The translations under genes and the position numbers were made by a program. This document shows positions 3,159 to 64,000 of a DNA stretch of 64,000 bases, piece after piece; position 1 is the first letter of the stretch, and every line of letters begins with the position of its first letter. The stretch is from Escherichia coli (GTDB taxonomy: Bacteria; Pseudomonadota; Gammaproteobacteria; Enterobacterales; Enterobacteriaceae), in NCBI RefSeq assembly GCF_030013205.1, contig NZ_CP122648.1, one strand, 5' to 3'. Under the pieces are notes generated by a model. It saw only the letters and a list, made by a program, of their open reading frames with translations. It was not told where the DNA came from and searched no databases.

Positions 3159-10005
<6,847 letters not shown>

Positions 10006-53361: not shown

Positions 53362-55401
53362 TCATCCCAGGAACCGTTGAGCACCAATTAGTTGCGCGAA
53401 GTAATCGGCACCAGCGTTCCGAACAATTTCCAACTTAACGTTCTGATCATTGTTTCCTGCTGCAGGGACAATCCCACGATTCATAGCCAGCGCCCGGATC
53501 ACATCTTCAACACTTACAGCTTTAGCGGCAGCACCATTTTCATGGTTAATAATGCCCTGAATTAGCTTTTTCATGACCTCAAAATTAGAACCATCGATTT
53601 TCTCCTTAACACCTAATCCGGTGTACTGAGAGAGATAGCTTTTATAGGACGATGTGTTATTTCCATCAGATGAAGGGGCATAAATATCAATAATCTGATC
53701 AATCGTATTTTTGCCGCGTTTCAGGTATAGCATTACCTGCCGATCTAAGGCGGCAATGCCTTCCAGCATCGTCGGGAAGCTGGCAAAACGGGCATTTGGC
53801 CCCGATTCCAGGGTAGCCCCTTTTTGTCCTGCGAAATTAAGATTTCCGGGATTGTTATTCCTGATCCCTCTGGATAAATATGCAGATCTGTTTACTTGAT
53901 TTGAAAATCCCTGCAATCCTCCAGGCCAGACCTTACCCGGATTGTTTTTTTGCCACTCCTGCACTTCGTTAAAATAATCAAAGTTGAAACGCCCCTCCAG
54001 CCCTTTCATTTCCTCACTGGTGGTAGGTGTGTCATTTGTAGGAATAGCCAATCCAGCTACTGTTCCGGCTGTAGCCCCAAGAAGACTTCCACCAACAACA
54101 CGGGCGGCAACTCCGGTCGTTGTGGCTGCCACAGCACCAACTCTCGATGGTCCAGCAAGTACTGCGGCCCCAAAAAGCCAGGGATGTTCAACCGCAAAAC
54201 CAACAAACCCGCTAAGTGCCTTAACAACCTTTGCAACGTTTTCGGCAAAATTGTTCAGGTCGTTATTAAAATCCGGGCCATTTACGTACTTACCAAGTTT
54301 ATCCAGCCCCGTTTCTACATCCGTCAGAATCCTTTTAAAGTTCTCACCATTCATGAAATTCAGGGCAGCATTCGTGGCACCATCAGACATTCTGATTAAA
54401 GCGTCTTCATTCCCCGCCATTGCTCCCTGAAATCCGCTGGTAAGCCGATCCCAGTTTTTTTCCAGGTTACTGGTAATATTCTGATATTTACTTGTATGTG
54501 CAGAGGTCAGTAACGAATCATTCTGCGCTGCACGTAACGAAAACTCTTTGTTGAGTTCAGGTATTTTGTCCTGATATTTGACTAACTGGTTAGTAAGACC
54601 AAAATTTACCCATCCAAGCCCCATTCCTCTGAAATTGCTCTGGGTAAGACCAGTTCCCTGATATTCCTTTGCCAGCGCTGCAACCTTTTTCAGGAATACA
54701 GGCAGGTTTTCAGTCGCGTTTTTATCAGGATTTAGCCCCAGATTAAGCAGGCCGACGCGGGCAGGATGCGATATATCATTTTGTGCTGCTGCCAGTGTAT
54801 TGAGCACATTGCCAACACCGGAAAAATAAGGCGAATAAGTGCTTTCTGCCGCCTTTAACTCTCCTGGCGTTGCCACCAGCTCATCTGCATTTTTCTGTTT
54901 CTCTACAACACTACGGGACATCATGCCAAAGCCAAACGGTCCGGCAACGCCCATAACCGAGAGTTTTGTTCCCCACGATACGGTTGTTTTAAACAGGTTG
55001 TTTAATCTTGAAGTGGTCGTCTGTAGTGTAGAATTGATCTGCTTGTAAGTTTTCAGCGTCTGTTGGGCATTTTTCCCCAGCCCGCTGAGATACTTATCAA
55101 ACATCGTTTCGCCGCGACCTTTATAGTTGCTTACGAACGAATCTGCTGTTTTTCCGCTGCCGACAAAGCGCCCTTTTTCGTCCCTCACTCTCCCGGATAC
55201 ATCCGGTCCTGTCCGACCAGATTTTGCCGCCACGGGTAAGCCTGCCCCCACGCTGCGCCCACTTTGCCCCGGTATTTTCATCGGCGTTCCGGCAGGGCCG
55301 ATCATCAGCCCGTTGCGATACTTTTCAAAAATTGCCTCAAGCCGTTTGAGGTGTTCTTCATTAACGTCCAGCGTCAGAACTGGCATCTGATTACCTGACA
55401 T
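53362..55401 (-). CDS. large Gly/Ala-rich protein, tape-measure-like (function uncertain)
   Basis: 679-aa ORF; hydrophobic Gly/Ala-rich segment (GFVGFAVEHPWLFGAAVLAGPSRVGAVAATTTGVAARVVGGSLLGATAGTVAGLAIP), helical N-terminal half, C-terminal NNNPGNLNF region; start codon overlaps the stop of the upstream frameshifted pair (TAATG). No NTPase motif found. Confidence 0.45.
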   Translation of the reverse strand: MSGNQMPVLTLDVNEEHLKRLEAIFEKYRNGLMIGPAGTPMKIPGQSGRSVGAGLPVAAKSGRTGPDVSGRVRDEKGRFVGSGKTADSFVSNYKGRGETMFDKYLSGLGKNAQQTLKTYKQINSTLQTTTSRLNNLFKTTVSWGTKLSVMGVAGPFGFGMMSRSVVEKQKNADELVATPGELKAAESTYSPYFSGVGNVLNTLAAAQNDISHPARVGLLNLGLNPDKNATENLPVFLKKVAALAKEYQGTGLTQSNFRGMGLGWVNFGLTNQLVKYQDKIPELNKEFSLRAAQNDSLLTSAHTSKYQNITSNLEKNWDRLTSGFQGAMAGNEDALIRMSDGATNAALNFMNGENFKRILTDVETGLDKLGKYVNGPDFNNDLNNFAENVAKVVKALSGFVGFAVEHPWLFGAAVLAGPSRVGAVAATTTGVAARVVGGSLLGATAGTVAGLAIPTNDTPTTSEEMKGLEGRFNFDYFNEVQEWQKNNPGKVWPGGLQGFSNQVNRSAYLSRGIRNNNPGNLNFAGQKGATLESGPNARFASFPTMLEGIAALDRQVMLYLKRGKNTIDQIIDIYAPSSDGNNTSSYKSYLSQYTGLGVKEKIDGSNFEVMKKLIQGIINHENGAAAKAVSVEDVIRALAMNRGIVPAAGNNDQNVKLEIVRNAGADYFAQLIGAQRFLG

Positions 55402-56083
55402 TACAATACTCCTGCGGGATTTTTGAATTTGAGCAGCTCACGAAACTGAGCTGCTGTTTTTACATTCAGACCGGAATCTGCACAGATGTCTCTGAATCCG
55501 GCTCCGGCTGAGTAGTCGAGGATGTCGCTGATGACGTGTTCGCCGTCGCGCCAGAACTGACGGCAGGCTTCAATGTCGGCAATGAATCGATCCATTCCGT
55601 AAGACTCAAGGACGAGCATTGAGTGCTCCATATTCCATTCACCGCATCCATAGTCCCCTTCGTCTGCTCCGGGGAATTTATCGACGAGACGCATGTAAAA
55701 AAAACAAGTTCACCCGCCACTTCGTCCAAATCAACGATTTCACGCTCCAGCGCCATATCGAGAGGGATTGTGTCGTAGCCTTTGCCCTCCACTGGATAAA
55801 CAAGGTTTGCCAGGCGAATAATTTCGTTTATGAGCGTATTACGTATGCCTTTCTCCCCATCCCATAAACCGGAGTCACGGGAGATTTTCTCCAGCATAAG
55901 GCAGGCAACGCGCGGACCCGCAACAACACCAAGACCTTCAGAAAAAATGGCAGAAAAGGTTTTACTCAGGATGAAGAAATGCTCTTTAAACACCTCTTTG
56001 CTGATCGGCGTGGCATGGAGCCAGCCATTACCCTTTTCAGTGCGCACAGGGATAATCAGATTTAAGTTTTTAGCAATTTTCAT
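55401..56083 (-). CDS. two overlapping same-strand ORFs joined by a probable programmed -1 frameshift (tail assembly chaperone G/GT-like)
   Basis: ORF A (56083 down to about 55466) reads ...DLDEVAGELVFF through a run of 8 T on the minus strand (8 A on plus at about 55696-55703); ORF B (about 55694..55401) is in the -1 frame and continues ...YMRLVDKFPGADEG. Upstream segment about 129 aa, downstream about 98 aa, directly 5' of the 679-aa gene. Confidence 0.4.
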
Positions 56084-56763
56084 GATTCACTCACTCTGTT
56101 TTTTTCCAGTTGATCCAGCCGCCCGGATATTTCTTCCAGTTTTTCCAGAGCTGGCTTGCAGGCCGCATCAATAACTTCACGGACCATTCCGGCGAGCTGT
56201 TCTTCTTCTGTCGGCGTTGTTACTTCCACACCTGATGGTTTCCCGCCCTTATCCCATACGCCCAACGGTACGAGCGCAACGTGATCGATAAGAAATGGCG
56301 TACCCTCAATGAAAAAATTGTCCTCGCCCATTACATCAGGAACTTCTGCCCCACCGGACGCACCACAAAACACAACCGACGGGCTGGTGGATACCTCCCC
56401 CCGTGCTTTCTGGATGTAATCGATGATTTCCTGCCCGTAAATCCGGCATACACCCCACACCTCGTCACCGCGAATATACGGCAACATGACGGTGCCAATA
56501 ATGCGCGACCGTTCGCCAACGTCTTCAATGGTTTTGCCTTCGGGATGGTCGATAATGACGGGTACTCCGGCGCAACGTTCCAGGAACTGCGGATTGAGAT
56601 AAGTTTGCGGTGAACGCCAGACAAATTCTTTTTCTTCGGCGCGGTAGGCCATGCCAGTCCCTGTAATACGCAGGTTAACCAGCCACATGTTGGAGAACTG
56701 ATAAGGCGACGGTAGCTGACCGTCCCGAATCTGCTTTGCCGCCTCAATTTCTGTTAAAAGCAT
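56080..56763 (-). CDS. phage-like hypothetical protein (227 aa)
   Basis: ORF MLLTEIEAAKQIRDGQLPSPYQFSNMWLVNLRITGTGMAYRAEEKEF; overlaps the start of the downstream gene by 4 nt (coupled operon). No family recognised with confidence; could be a tail-tube-type or protease-type protein. Confidence 0.5.
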   Translation of the reverse strand: MLLTEIEAAKQIRDGQLPSPYQFSNMWLVNLRITGTGMAYRAEEKEFVWRSPQTYLNPQFLERCAGVPVIIDHPEGKTIEDVGERSRIIGTVMLPYIRGDEVWGVCRIYGQEIIDYIQKARGEVSTSPSVVFCGASGGAEVPDVMGEDNFFIEGTPFLIDHVALVPLGVWDKGGKPSGVEVTTPTEEEQLAGMVREVIDAACKPALEKLEEISGRLDQLEKNRVSES

Positions 56764-56827
56764 AATGTCACCCGGTTATAATCAATAAGCCCCGCCAAAT
56801 CCGGCAGGGCTGAAATCAGCACGTTTT

Positions 56828-57415
56828 TCATGCCCCCGCGAGGCTTGCAACGTTAATTTTGACCAGGCGACGGGGAGGGATTTTGAAAGCACTAAGCCAG
56901 TTATTCGGATCCCCCTGATATTCAGTAATCCGGCGCCCGGCTTCATCCATCCTGACTTTTTTAGTCAAATAACCCGGCGTGTTTTCCACGGCCCACTGAG
57001 CACTTTCCTGAGCAGCCTTGTAAATCTGATCTTCCAGCACCGCCAGCGTTGCAGAATCTGAAACGGAACGAATATCCACATCACTGAATTTTTTAGCCAG
57101 CTTCTGTGCGCCAATTAATGCACGCTTGCGGTAATCCATCGACTTTTCACCAGCAAACGGGGCCGGAGCTCGACGGCCCATATTGCTGTATGCGGAATCC
57201 GCTTTGGCCTGGGCTTCTGCCAGTGAGGATTCATCTTCGACTGACGCGACGATGTTTTGATTAGCGTTATCCTCTTTTATGAAATCCTGTGCGGGGATCG
57301 CATTCAGAATTTCGATAATCTCCTGCGGAGTGCTGCCCTGCGACTCTGACAGAGCGTTAACCACCTCCATCAGTTTTAATCGCAAATCTTCTTTGCTTGC
57401 TGGCATTTTTACCAC
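56828..57415 (-). CDS. phage-like hypothetical protein (195 aa)
   Basis: ORF MVKMPASKEDLRLKLMEVVNALSESQGSTPQEIIEILNAIPAQDF; acidic/helical; first gene of the leftward operon after a promoter-like gap. Confidence 0.5.
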   Translation of the reverse strand: MVKMPASKEDLRLKLMEVVNALSESQGSTPQEIIEILNAIPAQDFIKEDNANQNIVASVEDESSLAEAQAKADSAYSNMGRRAPAPFAGEKSMDYRKRALIGAQKLAKKFSDVDIRSVSDSATLAVLEDQIYKAAQESAQWAVENTPGYLTKKVRMDEAGRRITEYQGDPNNWLSAFKIPPRRLVKINVASLAGA

Positions 57416-57820: not shown

Positions 57821-58108
57821 TCACTGACTGCAATTTTTCGATCCAGGGTATTTCCTGAATGCCTTACCATTGGGCTGATGTAATCCCATCCCGGCATGTG
57901 CCCGGCTGATGGTTTCGCGCATCTCCCCGAAATTATCCTGCCGTGCTGGTGGGCGTGCTGCCTTGCGGATACATTCCGCGCGACGTTTTGCCGCCTGTTC
58001 CCGTGCCTTGTCATCATTCGCCAGCATGATGACCTCAGCCCACCGCGCCGCCGCTCTCCGGTACAGACCACGCGCTTCCAGTGCTTCCGCTTTGCTGTCG
58101 TGAATCAT
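57821..58108 (-). CDS. PerC-family transcriptional activator-like protein
   Basis: 95-aa ORF MIHDSKAEALEARGLYRRAAARWAEVIMLANDDKAREQAAKRRAECIRKA; the KAExLExRGxYRRAAxRW pattern matches recalled PerC/Pch-type activators. Confidence 0.55.
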   Translation of the reverse strand: MIHDSKAEALEARGLYRRAAARWAEVIMLANDDKAREQAAKRRAECIRKAARPPARQDNFGEMRETISRAHAGMGLHQPNGKAFRKYPGSKNCSQ

Positions 58109-58647
58109 GCGCCTGTTTTCTCCTTTGCTACCCGGCGCTGACGTTTGCGCTTCTCATTCAGCGCCACCAGCCGCGTTTCTGCGTCCTGTTGTTCCTGTGG
58201 TGTCACCTCGCCGCACGGCTGGCCTTTCAGGTCGTAGCGTACCCCACCAGCCATTAAGGCGCGGTAATAGCGCGGACACTGTGCATAAGATGCCAGCGTC
58301 GCACGCAATGCCCCTGGACCGAATGCCAGCCCCCTGACGGCGAGATCCTGCATCAGGTCGTCGAATATCCCCACCTTAAGCGGCTTCGGTGCTTCCCGGC
58401 TGAATAATTCAGGCCACAACTCAGTGAGGCGGTTAATGCGCCTGCGGTTTTTGCGCTGGCGCTTGGTCATATGCCGCCACAGTGTCGCCCCTGTGGGCTT
58501 CTGCTGCGCTTTCTGGTTACCGGGCATCACTTTATGCGCCGATGTGGTTTTATCCTGCTCCTGCGCCGCCTGCGTCGTTTTCTGCGGCGTGCCGTAAATG
58601 CCTTTAGGTTTTCTGTTAATGGTCAGCTTAGTCATGCTTTGCCCCAT
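58105..58647 (-). CDS. ProQ/FinO-domain RNA-binding protein
   Basis: 180-aa ORF; basic N-terminus then LTELWPELFSREAPKPLKVGIFDDLMQDLA...GALRATLASYAQCPRYYRALMAGGVRYDLKGQPCGEVTPQEQQDAETRL, closely resembling the recalled ProQ N-terminal FinO domain. Confidence 0.7.
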   Translation of the reverse strand: MGQSMTKLTINRKPKGIYGTPQKTTQAAQEQDKTTSAHKVMPGNQKAQQKPTGATLWRHMTKRQRKNRRRINRLTELWPELFSREAPKPLKVGIFDDLMQDLAVRGLAFGPGALRATLASYAQCPRYYRALMAGGVRYDLKGQPCGEVTPQEQQDAETRLVALNEKRKRQRRVAKEKTGA

Positions 58648-58719
58648 CGTTTTTACTGATTGCTACGTTGCCCAACGGCACTGACACAACATTCTGTTTT
58701 CATTTTTAACATTCCTAAT

Positions 58720-59115
58720 TTTTTAATTCCTCACCTGCTGCACAGTGAAAATTTATGAAGTTAATAACAATATGATTTTAAATGTATTTTTAAGTACTCA
58801 CTTTTTAATCCTTATATATACGCAAAAGTGAGGTAAATAGTTAAGTTTTAGTTAATATCTTGCATGGTGTGTTTTTTAACCTACCTGTTATTTTTATTAC
58901 CTCATTTCTATTAACTCACCATTCCTCACTTTTGTTCCTCACTTTTTGTTATTCCCGTCCTGCTCCTCACCTGTTTTTCTTGTTGTTGTAATGTCTTGTT
59001 TTACAATATGTTTTTCATTCCTCACTTTTTGACCTATATACAGGTGAGAAAGTGAGGAGTGGCGTTGATTTTTTGTTAAATTACCCGCCATCCTCACTTT
59101 TGCTCCTCACTTTTT
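58720..59115. repeat. iteron array (TCCTCACTTTT and variants, direct and inverted), candidate replication origin
   Basis: At least 10 copies of CCTCAC(T/C)TTT: e.g. 58728, 58924, 58937, 58964, 59020, 59091, 59105 direct and 58826, 59044 inverted, within AT-rich DNA directly 3' of the helicase gene; the last copies overlap the helicase stop codon. Confidence 0.6.
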
Positions 59116-60529
59116 ACAGTGGGCGCACATAATCACCGTCAATAGCGATTACGCCGTCGCTTTCCAGCTTGTACAGCCAGCGCCGGAAGTTTTTCATTTC
59201 ATACCCCAGCTTTTTCATATCATCGCGGAGAAGGGCGATAGTGCACGCCTCCCCGTGTGCTGTTCGCGTTCTGATGCACTGCCATAGCGCAGCGTGATTT
59301 TCCGTCTTGTTCCCGGCCTCCTCGATGCGTTCCAGTTCAACAGGTGGGCGCGGCTTATCCACAACCACCAGCGACGTGATTAACTCCCCGTCAGTGTCGG
59401 TAAAAAGCTCCACCACGCGTAAATCATATGCAGCCTCTTTCAGTTCCTCCGCGTCCTTCATTTTGGTGCAGGAGATAACCAGGGCTTCACTGTCCGCACC
59501 TTCACGGCGAATACGGTATTCAGCGTCCAGAGATGCACGAAATGCACTGGAACCACGCGCCCCTTTTGTTTCATCCTTGCCGGAATGGTGAACCACCAGT
59601 ACCGTGGCCCCCGTGCGTCGTTTCAGTTCGTCACATCCACGGATAAACGCCCCCATATCCCGCGCGTCATTTTCATCATTACCGCCAAAGCAACGCGCCA
59701 GCGTATCCAGAATAATCATGCGTACCGGTTTACCCGTTTCCCGTTCAACCTGACGGGAAGCGATGACCATTTCATCAACATCAAGCGGGACCGCCGGAAA
59801 AATCGGGCGGTTTACCAGGTACAGATTTTTCACCCGTTCATCATTAACGATTTCCCATGCTTTGATACGACGAGGGACACCAATGCCACCTTCACCGACG
59901 ACATACATCACCGAACCATGCGCCACCCTGCGGCCTCCCCAGTGGCGACCCGTGGCAACATGACACGCCCAGGAACACGCGAGGAACGATTTATAGGAAC
60001 CGCTCGCGCCGTATGTGCTGCACAATGAATTAGCCGGAATCACGCCCTTAACGACATAATCAAGCTGTGTGTCGTACCCTGCAGATCCAATACTCATTGG
60101 TAGTGTGGTTTTTCGCTGGTCGTTTTTTTCTTCCTCTGGTATCTCTCCGGACAGTCTTTTCTGGCGCTCTCGTTCCAGATATTCGCGCCACTCCTCGCGT
60201 TTCTGGCTGTGCATTCCCTCGGGGTAATAATTCGCATCCCGTACACCTGCCGCCGCCAGCTTTTGCCCGATGGCGTTAATATTTGACGGCTTGATGTGGC
60301 CTGCCTTGTACAGCCGGACACAATAGCGACCATCGTCGATAATTTTCAGGTCTGCCAGTTCGTCAAGCTGGCTGTCTCCCAGCCATACAGGCGGCACGTT
60401 GTCGCCAGCAAGTCGCCCGTCCTGCTCCTGCCACTGTTTCGCGTGCGCCCAGGCATCACTACCCGCAAAAATAATGACTTCGGTCATTTTGTCGTGTGGC
60501 TGTTTTTTTAAGTTCGGTGCCAGTTTCAT
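59114..60529 (-). CDS. RepA/DnaB-like replicative helicase (RecA-fold ATPase)
   Basis: 471-aa ORF with P-loop GASGSYKS, Walker-B-like ILDTLARCFGG and LVVHHSGKDETKGARGSSAF, typical of phage/satellite helicase-type initiators; start overlaps the upstream gene stop. Confidence 0.75.
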   Translation of the reverse strand: MKLAPNLKKQPHDKMTEVIIFAGSDAWAHAKQWQEQDGRLAGDNVPPVWLGDSQLDELADLKIIDDGRYCVRLYKAGHIKPSNINAIGQKLAAAGVRDANYYPEGMHSQKREEWREYLERERQKRLSGEIPEEEKNDQRKTTLPMSIGSAGYDTQLDYVVKGVIPANSLCSTYGASGSYKSFLACSWACHVATGRHWGGRRVAHGSVMYVVGEGGIGVPRRIKAWEIVNDERVKNLYLVNRPIFPAVPLDVDEMVIASRQVERETGKPVRMIILDTLARCFGGNDENDARDMGAFIRGCDELKRRTGATVLVVHHSGKDETKGARGSSAFRASLDAEYRIRREGADSEALVISCTKMKDAEELKEAAYDLRVVELFTDTDGELITSLVVVDKPRPPVELERIEEAGNKTENHAALWQCIRTRTAHGEACTIALLRDDMKKLGYEMKNFRRWLYKLESDGVIAIDGDYVRPL

Positions 60530-60825
60530 TTTGTGCCCCTGAATGCGTTAATCATGTTTTTCATTTTCTGAATATTTGCCCGTGCCTTTGCGTTGCTGGT
60601 GGGCTGTTTGCATGGCGTGGCCTGTATCAGTGAAAAATCACGCCGGAACTGATAAACAGGCATCACGCAGTCATATTCGTACCCATCACGGCGGTAAGTA
60701 ACGCACCGTCCCGCCACGCTTTTAATCGTTACAGTGCCGCCGTATTTATCTTTGAAAATATCGCCGGGGCGGATTTCAGGCCGAGAGAGACCGCTGGCAG
60801 TAAAGCCAGAATTTTTCTTTTTCAT
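60526..60825 (-). CDS. hypothetical protein (99 aa)
   Basis: ORF MKKKNSGFTASGLSRPEIRPGDIFKDKYGGTVTIKSVAGRCVTYRRDGYEYDC; coupled (ATGA overlap) to the helicase gene. Confidence 0.5.
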   Translation of the reverse strand: MKKKNSGFTASGLSRPEIRPGDIFKDKYGGTVTIKSVAGRCVTYRRDGYEYDCVMPVYQFRRDFSLIQATPCKQPTSNAKARANIQKMKNMINAFRGTK

Positions 60826-60831
60826 GGTTTT

Positions 60832-61197
60832 TTACTCCTGCGTCTTGCTCTGAATTACCTGATAACCGCAATCGGTCAGCAATTCGATAAATTCCGGCAA
60901 TGTGCCGAAACAGCAATTATCACGCATACGTTCGCGGGATACCTCAACGCCGTTTTCGTAGTGACTCACCATGCGTCCGGTAAAATGCAGATCATCATCG
61001 TGATGGCACGTTGACGGCTTAATCAGTCGCGCACGTTCTGCCAGCTCCAGCAATGCTTCAACACTTCCGGCAATTGCACCATCCGGCAGGCGATAATTAC
61101 TTACCACGCGTCCATTCTCCACATTGACCAGTAGCTGCCCGGTAAATTTCTCATCAAACTGAATGCTGTTAAGGTCAGAAATTGACAGGTTATGCAT
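60832..61197 (-). CDS. hypothetical protein (121 aa)
   Basis: ORF MHNLSISDLNSIQFDEKFTGQLLVNVENGRVVSNYRLPDGAIAGSVEALLELAERA; same operon, overlaps the upstream gene by 8 nt. Confidence 0.5.
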   Translation of the reverse strand: MHNLSISDLNSIQFDEKFTGQLLVNVENGRVVSNYRLPDGAIAGSVEALLELAERARLIKPSTCHHDDDLHFTGRMVSHYENGVEVSRERMRDNCCFGTLPEFIELLTDCGYQVIQSKTQE

Positions 61198-61552
61198 GGT
61201 GCACCTCCTGGCGAATACGGGCGGCGAATACCATCACGCAGCCATCAGGAGATTGCTGGCGTGCTTCCTGTTCGCTGGTGGCCTCGATGTGAATCACGCG
61301 CGGTTGTGCCGTACTCAGGGCGATAAAACGCCAGATAAAATTGTTTTCGCATTTCTGAATAAACAGCGTGTTTTCTTCGCGCCCTTTCCATGTTGCCGAG
61401 ATATAGCCCATGCCATTGAGCATCTCGCAGGCATCAACCAGCGTATCAGCGGCTACGTGTACAGTGTTTTTACCGTCAGCTATGCAATCACGGTGCACCG
61501 CCAGGAAGGTGTATATAAATTTAGGGTGAGTTTGGGTATGCTGTGTTCCAGC
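61190..61552 (-). CDS. hypothetical protein (about 120 aa)
   Basis: Internal start of the long minus ORF: MAGTQHTQTHPKFIYTFLAVHRDCIADGKNTVHVAADTLVDACEMLNGMGY, preceded by GAGGT RBS; everything upstream in that frame looks like antisense junk. Confidence 0.45.
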   Translation of the reverse strand, partial: AGTQHTQTHPKFIYTFLAVHRDCIADGKNTVHVAADTLVDACEMLNGMGYISATWKGREENTLFIQKCENNFIWRFIALSTAQPRVIHIEATSEQEARQQSPDGCVMVFAARIRQEVHHA

Positions 61553-61754
61553 CATAATCGTTACCTCATTTAACGGTTTGGTTAGAAGCCCCGTTACTGC
61601 TCCAACAGTGCGGGGCTTCGTCGTTTCAATTGCTGAATTGCATGTATCAGCCCTTGTGGTATTCAGATTACATTTTGGTGAATACCATTTCAAGTCTTTT
61701 TTGGTATTCACTTTTGTATTACACTGCATCCCGTTATTAATCGGAGGTGCAAAC

Positions 61755-62060
61755 ATGTCCACGAGTTCTGTTAACAATAAGTCACAGCAACTGAATGCCA
61801 GATTTCCACATGAAGTAGTGAGTGGCATTGAGGCATCCCTACAGCCAGGGGAAACTAAAGCGAATTTTATAGTTACGGCTGTACGCGGTGAGATCGCCCG
61901 CCGCCAGGCAGAAGGAAGCGGAGAAAACCCCCTGGTTTCTTCGCTCGATGCGCTGGCGCAGGTGGAAAAAATCGGAGTCAAAGCTGCCGAGGAGATCGGG
62001 CAGCTCGTCACCGTCGCACGTGAAGAACTCCAGCGCCGCAAGGCCAAAGAATCAGAATAA
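61755..62060 (+). CDS. small DNA-binding-like protein (possible ribbon-helix-helix / YlcI-YnfO-like), the only convincing plus-strand gene in the element
   Basis: ATG 61755 preceded by GGAGG RBS; MSTSSVNNKSQQLNARFPHEVVSGIEASLQPGETKANFIVTAVRGEIARRQAEGSGENPL (101 aa); divergent from the flanking minus-strand genes. Confidence 0.5.
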   Translation: MSTSSVNNKSQQLNARFPHEVVSGIEASLQPGETKANFIVTAVRGEIARRQAEGSGENPLVSSLDALAQVEKIGVKAAEEIGQLVTVAREELQRRKAKESE

Positions 62061-62283
62061 TAACTATCATCGCCGTGGTGTGAGGAACTCCGGCGCATTG
62101 CTTTACAGGTACACAGAATGACCAACAAAGAATCAACCAAAACACCATCACCAACTCGTAAGAGACGACGCAAAAATATAGCGCATGAACATGAATCAGA
62201 AAGATTCGCACCTTGTTCGTTTGCTCTTGAGAAATTCCTTAAAGAGCACAGGAAAAAGCTCTCGTTGCAAACCTTGGAACGAA

Positions 62284-62692
62284 CCAAATCTGACTGATCA
62301 CATTGCCCACCAGCCGCAAATGTGGCATTGTTGGTGATGCGTTCAAGTATGTAGCTTTTCCACTGGCGGCTCTCTACGGTCGCCTTTGTTTTATCCAGAA
62401 CGAAATCAGACATCAGATTGATCAGCACCTGGCGACCTGACAAAATCGCATCAGTCGCGCCACCAGCAAAATTTTTTGCTTTCCGGACGGCGTGACCAAC
62501 GGCATTTTGCAGCAAAATATTCTGCATTTCTGGCGTGCTGTAGTAACGGTGATCAGCGCCTTCACTCTGTGCGACCACAACGCTATAATCTGCCTCGTAG
62601 ACAGTAAGCAATATGGCGCAGTAGGCTATTCGTTCACAAAGGCGCTCCGGCAACGGGGCGCTTTTTGTTATGTTCATCGCGTTACGCCTCAC
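62284..62692 (-). CDS. hypothetical protein; protein-like N-terminal about 135 codons of a 500-codon open frame (true 3' end unclear)
   Basis: MRRNAMNITKSAPLPERLCERIAYCAILLTVYEADYSVVVAQSEGADHRYYSTPEMQNILLQNAVGHAVRK is protein-like, but the frame has no stop until 61190 and runs antisense through the plus-strand gene with Ser/Cys-rich junk; possible lost stop, frameshift or sequencing error. Confidence 0.35.
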
Positions 62693-62696
62693 ACCA

Positions 62697-62903
62697 TTAC
62701 GCAGCCGTTCCGCGCGCTTCTTCCTCGCGTTCTTTCAGCCAGGCCAGCACCTCATCTTCATACCAGCCAACACGACGCAGACCGATTTTGAAGCCTTTCG
62801 GGAATTTTCCGGCGTTGATCATGTCCTGTAGCGAACTGTCTGCCTTGATGCGCAGAATATTTTTTACTTCCTGACGGGTAAGGATTTTTCTGATTGTTTC
62901 CAC
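62697..62903 (-). CDS. alpA: AlpA-family phage regulatory protein (excisionase-like HTH)
   Basis: 68-aa ORF METIRKILTRQEVKNILRIKADSSLQDMINAGKFPKGFKIGLRRVGWYEDEVLAWLKERE, the AlpA/Vis pattern. Confidence 0.8.
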   Translation of the reverse strand: METIRKILTRQEVKNILRIKADSSLQDMINAGKFPKGFKIGLRRVGWYEDEVLAWLKEREEEARGTAA

Positions 62904-63402: not shown

Positions 63403-64000
63403 TTACACGGCACGGATACCCCTTTTACCACTGGCTATGGTCACTCCGGTAGCTGCGGCCTCTACAAATTCCCCCCACCAGCGCATAAGCACCACGCGCT
63501 TTTCCAGGTAGTTACTTCGGTTATATGCTCGCCTTACCTCGTTCGTGTCCACGTGTGCGAGTGCGGCCTCGATTACGTCCGGCTCGAATCCTTCCTCGTT
63601 CGCTGCTGTACTGAATATGGCGCGTAATCCGTGAGACACCAGCACACCAGCGTATCCCATCCGGCGCAATGCAGCGTTAGCGGTCTGGCTGCTCATTGGC
63701 AGCATTGGATTTTTAAGGCTGGGAAAAACATGTTCCCTGTGTGCGCTGATTGGCTTCATTGTTTCCAGTACAGCCATCGCCTGACCGCAAAGAGGGATCA
63801 CATGGTCACGGCGCATCTTCATGCGTCCGGCTGGAATCGTCCAGGTTTCGGCATCGAGATCTATTTCTTCCCAGCGTGCGGCGGCTGCTTCGGCTGGGCG
63901 TGCTACGGTCAGCAGTTGCCACTCAATCAGCAATCTGGTTTGCCGTTCTATGCTGGCGACCGATAAATCGTGCATTAGCTGCGGTAGCTGTTCCGGTCGG
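63403..64000 (-). CDS. int: tyrosine recombinase / P4-type integrase, C-terminal catalytic part (gene starts beyond right edge)
   Basis: Frame is open to the window edge; C-terminal sequence ...HDLSVASIERQTRLLIEWQLLTVARPAEAAAARWEEIDL...HVIPL...LVSHGLRAIFSTAANEEGF...RRAYNRSNYLEKR shows the R...HxxR...Y catalytic residues of tyrosine integrases. Confidence 0.85.
   Translation of the reverse strand, partial: RPEQLPQLMHDLSVASIERQTRLLIEWQLLTVARPAEAAAARWEEIDLDAETWTIPAGRMKMRRDHVIPLCGQAMAVLETMKPISAHREHVFPSLKNPMLPMSSQTANAALRRMGYAGVLVSHGLRAIFSTAANEEGFEPDVIEAALAHVDTNEVRRAYNRSNYLEKRVVLMRWWGEFVEAAATGVTIASGKRGIRAV

Follow-up and report, generated by a model that had tools for sequence, protein, structure and literature searches.

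What would a helicase gene followed directly by an array of short repeats be doing in an island of the Escherichia coli chromosome and, if the array is an origin of replication, how would the helicase recognize it? The locus that raises this question lies in a stretch of 64,000 nucleotides, analysed as a whole and called the window here, from the chromosome of ETEC4079, a pig ETEC strain. Our frame of reference is the set of E. coli PICIs described by Fillol-Salom et al. 2018, which have an int-alpA-icd-like-rep-ori backbone, in some cases carry perC, and have as their origin the region 3' of rep, where two sets of iterons surround an AT-rich region; for EcCICFT073, plasmid replication driven by the rep-ori segment was shown (PMC6092414).

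An island with the anatomy of an E. coli PICI

The helicase gene (rep) belongs to an island of about 13.2 kb delimited by 26-bp direct repeats (96% identical) that lie 13,158 bp apart. Its main landmarks are listed here by position in the window.

51552..51577, plus strand: att direct repeat marking the distal boundary of the island; the matching copy, beside tRNA-Pro/yejM, falls outside the window
59114..60529, minus strand: rep, encoding a 471-aa initiator-helicase of the RepA family (RecA-fold, AAA_25), stop codon included; assigned from the ORF, Pfam and AF2
60526..60825, minus strand: DUF4222 gene, its stop overlapping the start of rep; 70% identical to its EcCICFT073 homologue
62697..62903, minus strand: alpA-family regulator, 68 aa, HTH; matches phrog_66 (excisionase/transcriptional regulator)
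63403..64000, minus strand: 3' part of the integrase gene, which extends past the window end

Read along the minus strand, the island begins with the integrase, a small ORF, the alpA-family regulator (sharing 76% identity with its EcCIATCC25922 counterpart), the oppositely oriented ylcI/ynfO, an icd-like gene, another small ORF and the DUF4222 gene, and continues with the helicase, an AT-rich gap, a ProQ/FinO-like gene, perC and cargo genes; all annotated genes lie on the minus strand except ylcI. The 13.16 kb between the att repeats fall within the PICI range of about 8-15 kb, the integrase stands at the end beside an att region used by PICIs, alpA follows int and transcription runs in one direction. 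EcCIATCC25922 occupies the same tRNA-Pro/yejM site, and a yejM-luxR/aidA site is listed for published PICIs; the published att core is absent from the island, which has a similar 26-bp repeat instead. The DUF4222 gene precedes rep in the examined E. coli and Enterobacter/Salmonella PICI-like elements, except EcCIRM13514. [quoted passage not shown] Judged by these comparisons, the analysis confirms the island as a PICI-type satellite with its own predicted replicon, in a rep-ori arrangement already published in 2018.

The remaining gene content can be summarized briefly. Searches of the island genes gave no capsid, tail or large-terminase match; closest to structural or lytic functions are a 679-aa protein with a lytic-transglycosylase domain and a DUF2213 protein that weakly matches a head protease. 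Rfam found no known RNA family in the island. A prophage replication module can be ruled out, as the rep-ori module has no close relatives in phage genomes by megablast and true phages reach at most 41% protein identity to Rep, over the core. The cargo at 52783-57415 (NUDIX, DUF2213, phrog_11810 and the 679-aa lytic-transglycosylase protein, phrog_7694) is unlike that of published E. coli PICIs, and over 500 aa the phrog_7694 protein shares 89% identity with a gene product from the record "Actinobacillus phage vB_Apl-pPE4". A ProQ/FinO-family RNA-chaperone gene (58105-58635) directly follows the origin region, as it does in EcCIRM13514. At 52519-52782 there is a second repeat array, in which TTGACAC(T)TTTT occurs six or seven times, once in inverted orientation; it adjoins a 175-aa ORF (52783-53310, minus strand) with an N-terminus like those of terS/Cox/MerR-type HTH proteins, and could be a pac site, an operator site or a second Rep-related site.

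Two further observations concern the state and number of such islands in this strain. A 500-aa open frame at 61190-62692 overlaps ylcI of the opposite strand, has an Icd-like match in its last ~50 residues only, and is annotated by RefSeq as a partial pseudogene; given this neighbouring icd-like pseudogene annotation, the island may be partly decayed. In NZ_CP122643.1 the rep-ori query and the cargo query each match three places, so that on sequence matches the strain seems to carry three related islands.

The iteron array in the AT-rich gap

The gap 3' of rep (58648-59113, 466 bp) has 32.8% GC, against 52-57% in its flanks. The motif CCTCACYTTT occurs six times in the 64-kb window, where 0.28 occurrences are expected and none of 100 shuffles reaches six, and all six copies lie within 291 bp (58824-59114). 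In terms of a longer 11-mer, TCCTCACTTTT, the gap holds eight strong copies, five exact and three with one mismatch. The copies and the modules that they form are as follows.

58923, 58936, 59019, 59091, 59104, plus strand: exact copies of TCCTCACTTTT
58795 (plus), 58824 (minus), 59048 (minus): copies of TCCTCACTTTT with one mismatch
58728 (plus), 58964 (plus), 59040 (minus): three weak copies of the CTCACCTG type
59091..59114, plus strand: iterons I2 and I1, in tandem at 13-bp spacing and abutting the stop codon; TCCTCACTTTT exact twice
59019..59058: inverted pair I4 (plus) / I3 (minus) around CCTATATACAGG, with an inner weak copy at 59040-59050 (minus)
58975..59018: AT-rich spacer (44 bp, 22.7% GC) between the iteron sets; candidate unwinding site
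58923..58974, plus strand: iterons I6 and I5, in tandem at 13-bp spacing, with a weak copy at 58964-58974
58795..58834: extra inverted pair I8 (plus) / I7 (minus) around TATATATAC, lineage-specific
58728-58738: further weak copy beyond the I8/I7 pair

The six core iterons are each exact or within one mismatch of the consensus, and the position of the AT-rich spacer is conserved among relatives. The first-pass annotation of this DNA, a RepA-like helicase with a 3' repeat array in AT-rich DNA, is borne out by the minus-strand 471-aa ORF and the composition of the gap. Its count of at least ten repeat copies holds if degenerate ones are included (eight strong plus three weak) and not otherwise, and of the two last copies said to overlap the stop codon, the final one (59104-59114) does so by 1 nt (the stop codon is 59114-59116), while the penultimate copy lies entirely outside the rep ORF.

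RefSeq places a small hypothetical protein inside the array (58939-59091, minus strand). The corresponding 52-aa ORF (58939-59097, minus strand) lies wholly within the iterons, has no PHROG or family match and is probably spurious.

Rep is a RecA-fold helicase with a predicted C-terminal winged helix

Rep matches the family profile of RepA/DnaB-like helicases (AAA_25), a RecA-like NTPase domain, at residues 153-320 (Pfam profile search, E=1.1e-43), and phrog_2850 covers its full length in a PHROG search. In the AF2 model (mean pLDDT 90.9) the protein has an N-terminal alpha/beta domain (17-126), a RecA-like core (158-389) and a C-terminal unit (410-470). The top structural match by target TM-score in Foldseek is RSF1010 RepA (1g8y, TMt 0.74), which is also the closest solved structure to the core by sequence (E=0.004). 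Three parts of the gene matter for what follows.

60125..60529, minus strand: N-terminal alpha/beta domain (aa 1-135), common to D5/primase-type PICI Pri-Rep alleles, from alignment
59117..59332, minus strand: predicted C-terminal winged-helix domain (aa 400-471), proposed iteron reader, from AF2 topology
59189..59191, minus strand: Asn447 codon (AAC), proposed specificity residue, the sole zero-error column in the alignment

The N-terminal domain has no Pfam match and a weak match to a primase PHROG fragment, and Pfam detects no primase or D5-type domain in Rep. The protein thus lacks the P4 alpha-type make-up of a primase domain joined to a D5/SF3 helicase, and its AAA_25 RecA-fold core is not the SF3 AAA+ ATPase core of SaPI-type Reps. 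Residues of the ATPase domain that are nearly invariant across the family are kept, in a full-length ORF.

Which domain would recognize the iterons? The first-pass annotation had looked to the N-terminal domain for DNA binding, and here comparative evidence points elsewhere. Only the N-terminal 135 aa of Rep align to D5-type PICI alleles, and they do so at 62-63% identity to the Pri-Rep N-termini of EcCICFT073 and EcCIRM13514, whose iterons (TGTCTACC and TGTTCACC) are unrelated to those of the window; we therefore reject the N-terminal domain as the main iteron reader. The C-terminal unit consists in the AF2 model of three helices (410-424, 431-440, 448-457) and a hairpin (461-470), a winged-helix topology that is predicted with high confidence; when this domain is modelled on its own all Foldseek matches are winged-helix proteins, none of them statistically significant (E>=0.14). 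Helix 3 is the recognition helix of this fold, and residue 447 directly precedes it, at its N-cap in the model. On the comparative evidence, it is most likely the C-terminal domain, and not the N-terminal one, that reads the iterons.

The iterons are exchanged together with the Rep core

We compare the island with four published elements, EcCI042, EcCICFT073, EcCIATCC25922 and EcCIRM13514. The order alpA, ylcI, icd-like, rep, ori is common to the window island and all four. The DUF4222 gene stands directly before rep in 3/4 (not EcCIRM13514) and perC is present in 3/4 (not EcCIATCC25922). The closest is EcCI042: full-length Rep shares 88% identity with the Pri-Rep allele of this element, and the 200 bp after EcCI042 rep contain CCTCACTTTT-type repeats in the same layout as in the window. 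Sorted by iteron, EcCICFT073 and EcCIATCC25922 have TGTCTACC, EcCIRM13514 has TGTTCACC, and EcCI042 and the window have CCTCACTTTT.

Between EcCI042 and EcCICFT073, homology extends to about rep codon 125, breaks off, and resumes with the next gene (92-95%); on this alignment the rep core, the C-terminal domain and the iterons are exchanged as a single cassette. The homology that many other E. coli genomes share with the window begins at about 58915, and therefore the proximal six iterons travel with rep. The cassette is common, with related rep-ori sequence in 1101 of 5426 complete E. coli genomes. In the EcCIRM13514 origin (locus L004, 9060-9300) the repeats are TGTTCACC, which we take to be the type I iteron of P4 alpha, and this suggests that the C-terminal domain of the EcCIRM13514 Rep is related to that of P4.

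The pattern of exchange bears on another reading of the array, in which the repeats are transcription-factor operators for the downstream operon (the proQ/finO-like gene, perC and cargo) and there is no origin. The array does immediately precede the next same-strand genes, and its inverted pairs look like operators. However, the repeat sequence tracks the rep allele and not the downstream genes, in both directions: EcCI042 and EcCICFT073 differ in their repeats while their downstream genes are 92-95% identical, and the window and EcCI042 have repeats in common while their downstream genes differ. Moreover, the repeats co-vary with residue 447 of Rep (see below), and no sigma-70-like promoter was found within 58500-59300. 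We consider a purely regulatory array quite unlikely; a dual role, as origin and regulatory site, is possible.

One residue of Rep predicts one base of the iteron

If the origin travels with its helicase, does the protein carry a signature of the iteron that it is paired with? We analysed 82 modules: 80 IMG/VR loci (relatives at 63-100% identity), the window and EcCI042. All 82 have repeats after rep, with six strong copies at fixed offsets from the stop codon. The origin reading had been held to fail if homologous elements lacked the iterons, and they are present throughout and co-vary with the helicase. The repeats come in two types, TCCTCAC and TCCCCAC (the T-type TCCTCACTTTT has the C-type counterpart TCCCCACTTTT), and all six core iterons switch type together. 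Asn447 occurs with TCCTCAC in 43/43 modules and His447 with TCCCCAC in 39/39, with zero exceptions. Among the 57 unique proteins, column 447 alone predicts iteron type without error, and the next best column misclassifies 14. A particularly close comparison is that of the window Rep with the Rep of locus L007: the proteins are 96.6% identical, and six strong and at least two weak repeat copies differ at the one base.

Because these sequences are related, the counts are not counts of independent events, and the number of switches, at least six when the tree is built from the C-terminal domain and twelve when it is built from the full-length protein, is better taken at its minimum of six as a conservative figure. 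Linkage alone can be set aside as the source of the association, since residues 448-471, which are encoded between codon 447 and the iterons, have no association with iteron type.

A stringent count across IMG/VR gives a similar picture, with 19 cases of Asn with the T-type repeat, 51 of His with the C-type, none of Asn with the C-type and one of His with the T-type. The lone exception, L096, has no start codon and is what remains of the 3' part of a gene, residues 337-471. In this locus (3434-5990) an intact CFT073-type Pri-Rep with TCTACC iterons is followed by the RepA-type remnant and a window-type origin, which looks like the scar of a replication-cassette replacement.

Beyond the close relatives, the helicase-sense repeat GTGAG accompanies the N-type in 3/3 distant relatives (primase-fused) and GTGGG the H-type in 2/3, the third H-type locus, L092, having mixed ATGAGG and ATGGGG repeats. 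Distant relatives have a zinc-ribbon/Toprim primase in place of the N-terminal domain. In the types from Enterobacter and Salmonella, residue 447 is Gly or Ser and the repeats are GTGCG in the same geometry, including an inverted pair around TGTATATAC; the inverted module centred on this sequence is conserved in both H-type and GTGCG-type relatives. The pairings of Asn with adenine and His with guanine agree with general amino-acid/base preferences. We also considered whether orthogonal types avoid each other within a genome, and this was unsupported: among the six IMG/VR genomes that contain at least two modules, N and H types occur together in two and a single type in four.

Taken as sequence evidence, these data point to the matching of residue 447 with one iteron base as an addition to the known PICI rep-ori arrangement; we found no description of such a residue-iteron rule in the searchable literature, which is a limited set. 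We think it probable, with some reserve, that residue 447 (Asn, His or Gly/Ser) sets the accepted iteron base (A, G or C, respectively, in helicase-sense 5'-GTG[A/G/C]G-3') and so splits RepA-type satellite replicons into repeatedly switched orthogonal origin classes, and that Rep is a RecA-fold helicase that recognizes and loads at its own double-stranded origin with no separate initiator, in convergence with SaPI Reps, which are SF3 helicases.

The co-variation also weighs on two further accounts of the array. Short-repeat arrays are known at pac and parS sites, so the repeats could be a packaging (pac/cos) signal or a partition site. PICIs do have helper-phage packaging signals (PMC6092414). 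We regard this as very improbable, since no terminase or ParAB gene adjoins the array, the array co-varies with the Rep C-terminal domain, and the second array at 52519-52782, beside a terS-N/MerR-like gene, is a better candidate for packaging. The other account takes the module for a dead remnant: the repeats would once have been an origin, in an island that has since lost the ability to replicate. The icd-like gene is annotated as incomplete and remnant rep-ori fragments occur elsewhere, as in L096, yet the window has a full-length Rep ORF with its near-invariant ATPase residues, six core iterons exact or within one mismatch, intact att repeats and integrase, and a residue 447 that still matches the iterons; we judge a relic unlikely. 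In sum, three findings count against the operator, relic and packaging accounts: the exchange of rep and iterons as a cassette, their co-variation, and a rep gene that is intact.

A model for initiation at the module

The reading that we prefer, and consider likely, is that the locus is the rep-ori of an integrated E. coli PICI, at which Rep, after induction and excision, binds the iterons by its C-terminal winged helix, opens the spacer and loads itself as helicase. In this model the 471-aa protein would bind the TCCTCACTTTT iterons through the C-terminal domain, with Asn447, at the start of the recognition helix, reading the A:T pair at iteron position 4. With Rep bound to either side of the AT-rich spacer (44 bp, 58975-59018), the DNA would open there, and Rep would then load its own RecA-fold ATPase ring as the replicative helicase, needing no separate initiator or loader. 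Iteron binding, melting, self-loading, polarity, priming and autonomous replication of the module are steps that we infer, and for polarity the RecA-fold AAA_25 core, closest to RSF1010 RepA, leads us to expect a hexamer that moves 5'-3', the direction opposite to the 3'-5' of SaPI Reps.

The module itself is ordinary, a satellite replicon of the type described in 2018. If the rule for residue 447 is true, a widespread family would have a simple recognition rule that keeps initiator and origin matched, and Rep would be an accessible case of an origin-binding initiator that is itself a RecA-fold helicase.

Comparison with known systems

The nearest relatives of the island are EcCI042 and the EcCI family, with which it has in common the order int, alpA, ylcI (on the opposite strand), icd-like, DUF4222, rep, ori and perC. 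It differs from them in its distinct integrase/att allele (75% DNA identity to EcCIATCC25922 at the integrase/alpA end), in the extra inverted iteron pair at 58795-58834, and in its cargo, where the EcCI elements have SSB, capsid and decoration genes and the window instead has ProQ/FinO, NUDIX, DUF2213 and the 679-aa lytic-transglycosylase protein. EcCICFT073, the only PICI allele with replication shown (PMC6092414), has a Rep core unrelated to that of the window.

A more distant parallel is the satellite phage P4, with which PICIs have been compared (PMC6092414). P4 alpha is a primase joined to an SF3 helicase, whereas the window Rep has no detectable primase or D5-type domain, and the P4-like TGTTCACC repeats occur in EcCIRM13514 and not in the window element. 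P4 alpha is nonetheless a satellite-encoded, multifunctional initiator-helicase that binds short repeats by its C-terminal domain.

The SaPIs of the earlier PICI/SaPI-type reading are similar in layout: their origin lies directly 3' of rep, with iterons that flank an AT-rich region, some in opposite orientation, and their Reps read these iterons via a C-terminal winged helix (PMC9371898). In the window, too, initiator and helicase would be one protein, with a predicted C-terminal winged helix as the proposed reader. SaPI Reps, however, are self-loading SF3 AAA+ helicases that move 3'-5', and the window Rep has a RecA fold without sequence homology to them. The PICI half of that reading stands, on gene order, att region and the EcCI042 layout, and the SaPI half does not extend to the helicase core.

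In its core, Rep is most like RSF1010 RepA, the nearest solved structure by both sequence and fold, with a RecA-like core. RSF1010 RepA is without an origin-binding domain and relies on a separate initiator, RepC, and a primase, RepB'. The window Rep differs in having a fused, predicted winged helix and an extra N-terminal domain, and its iterons follow its own gene.
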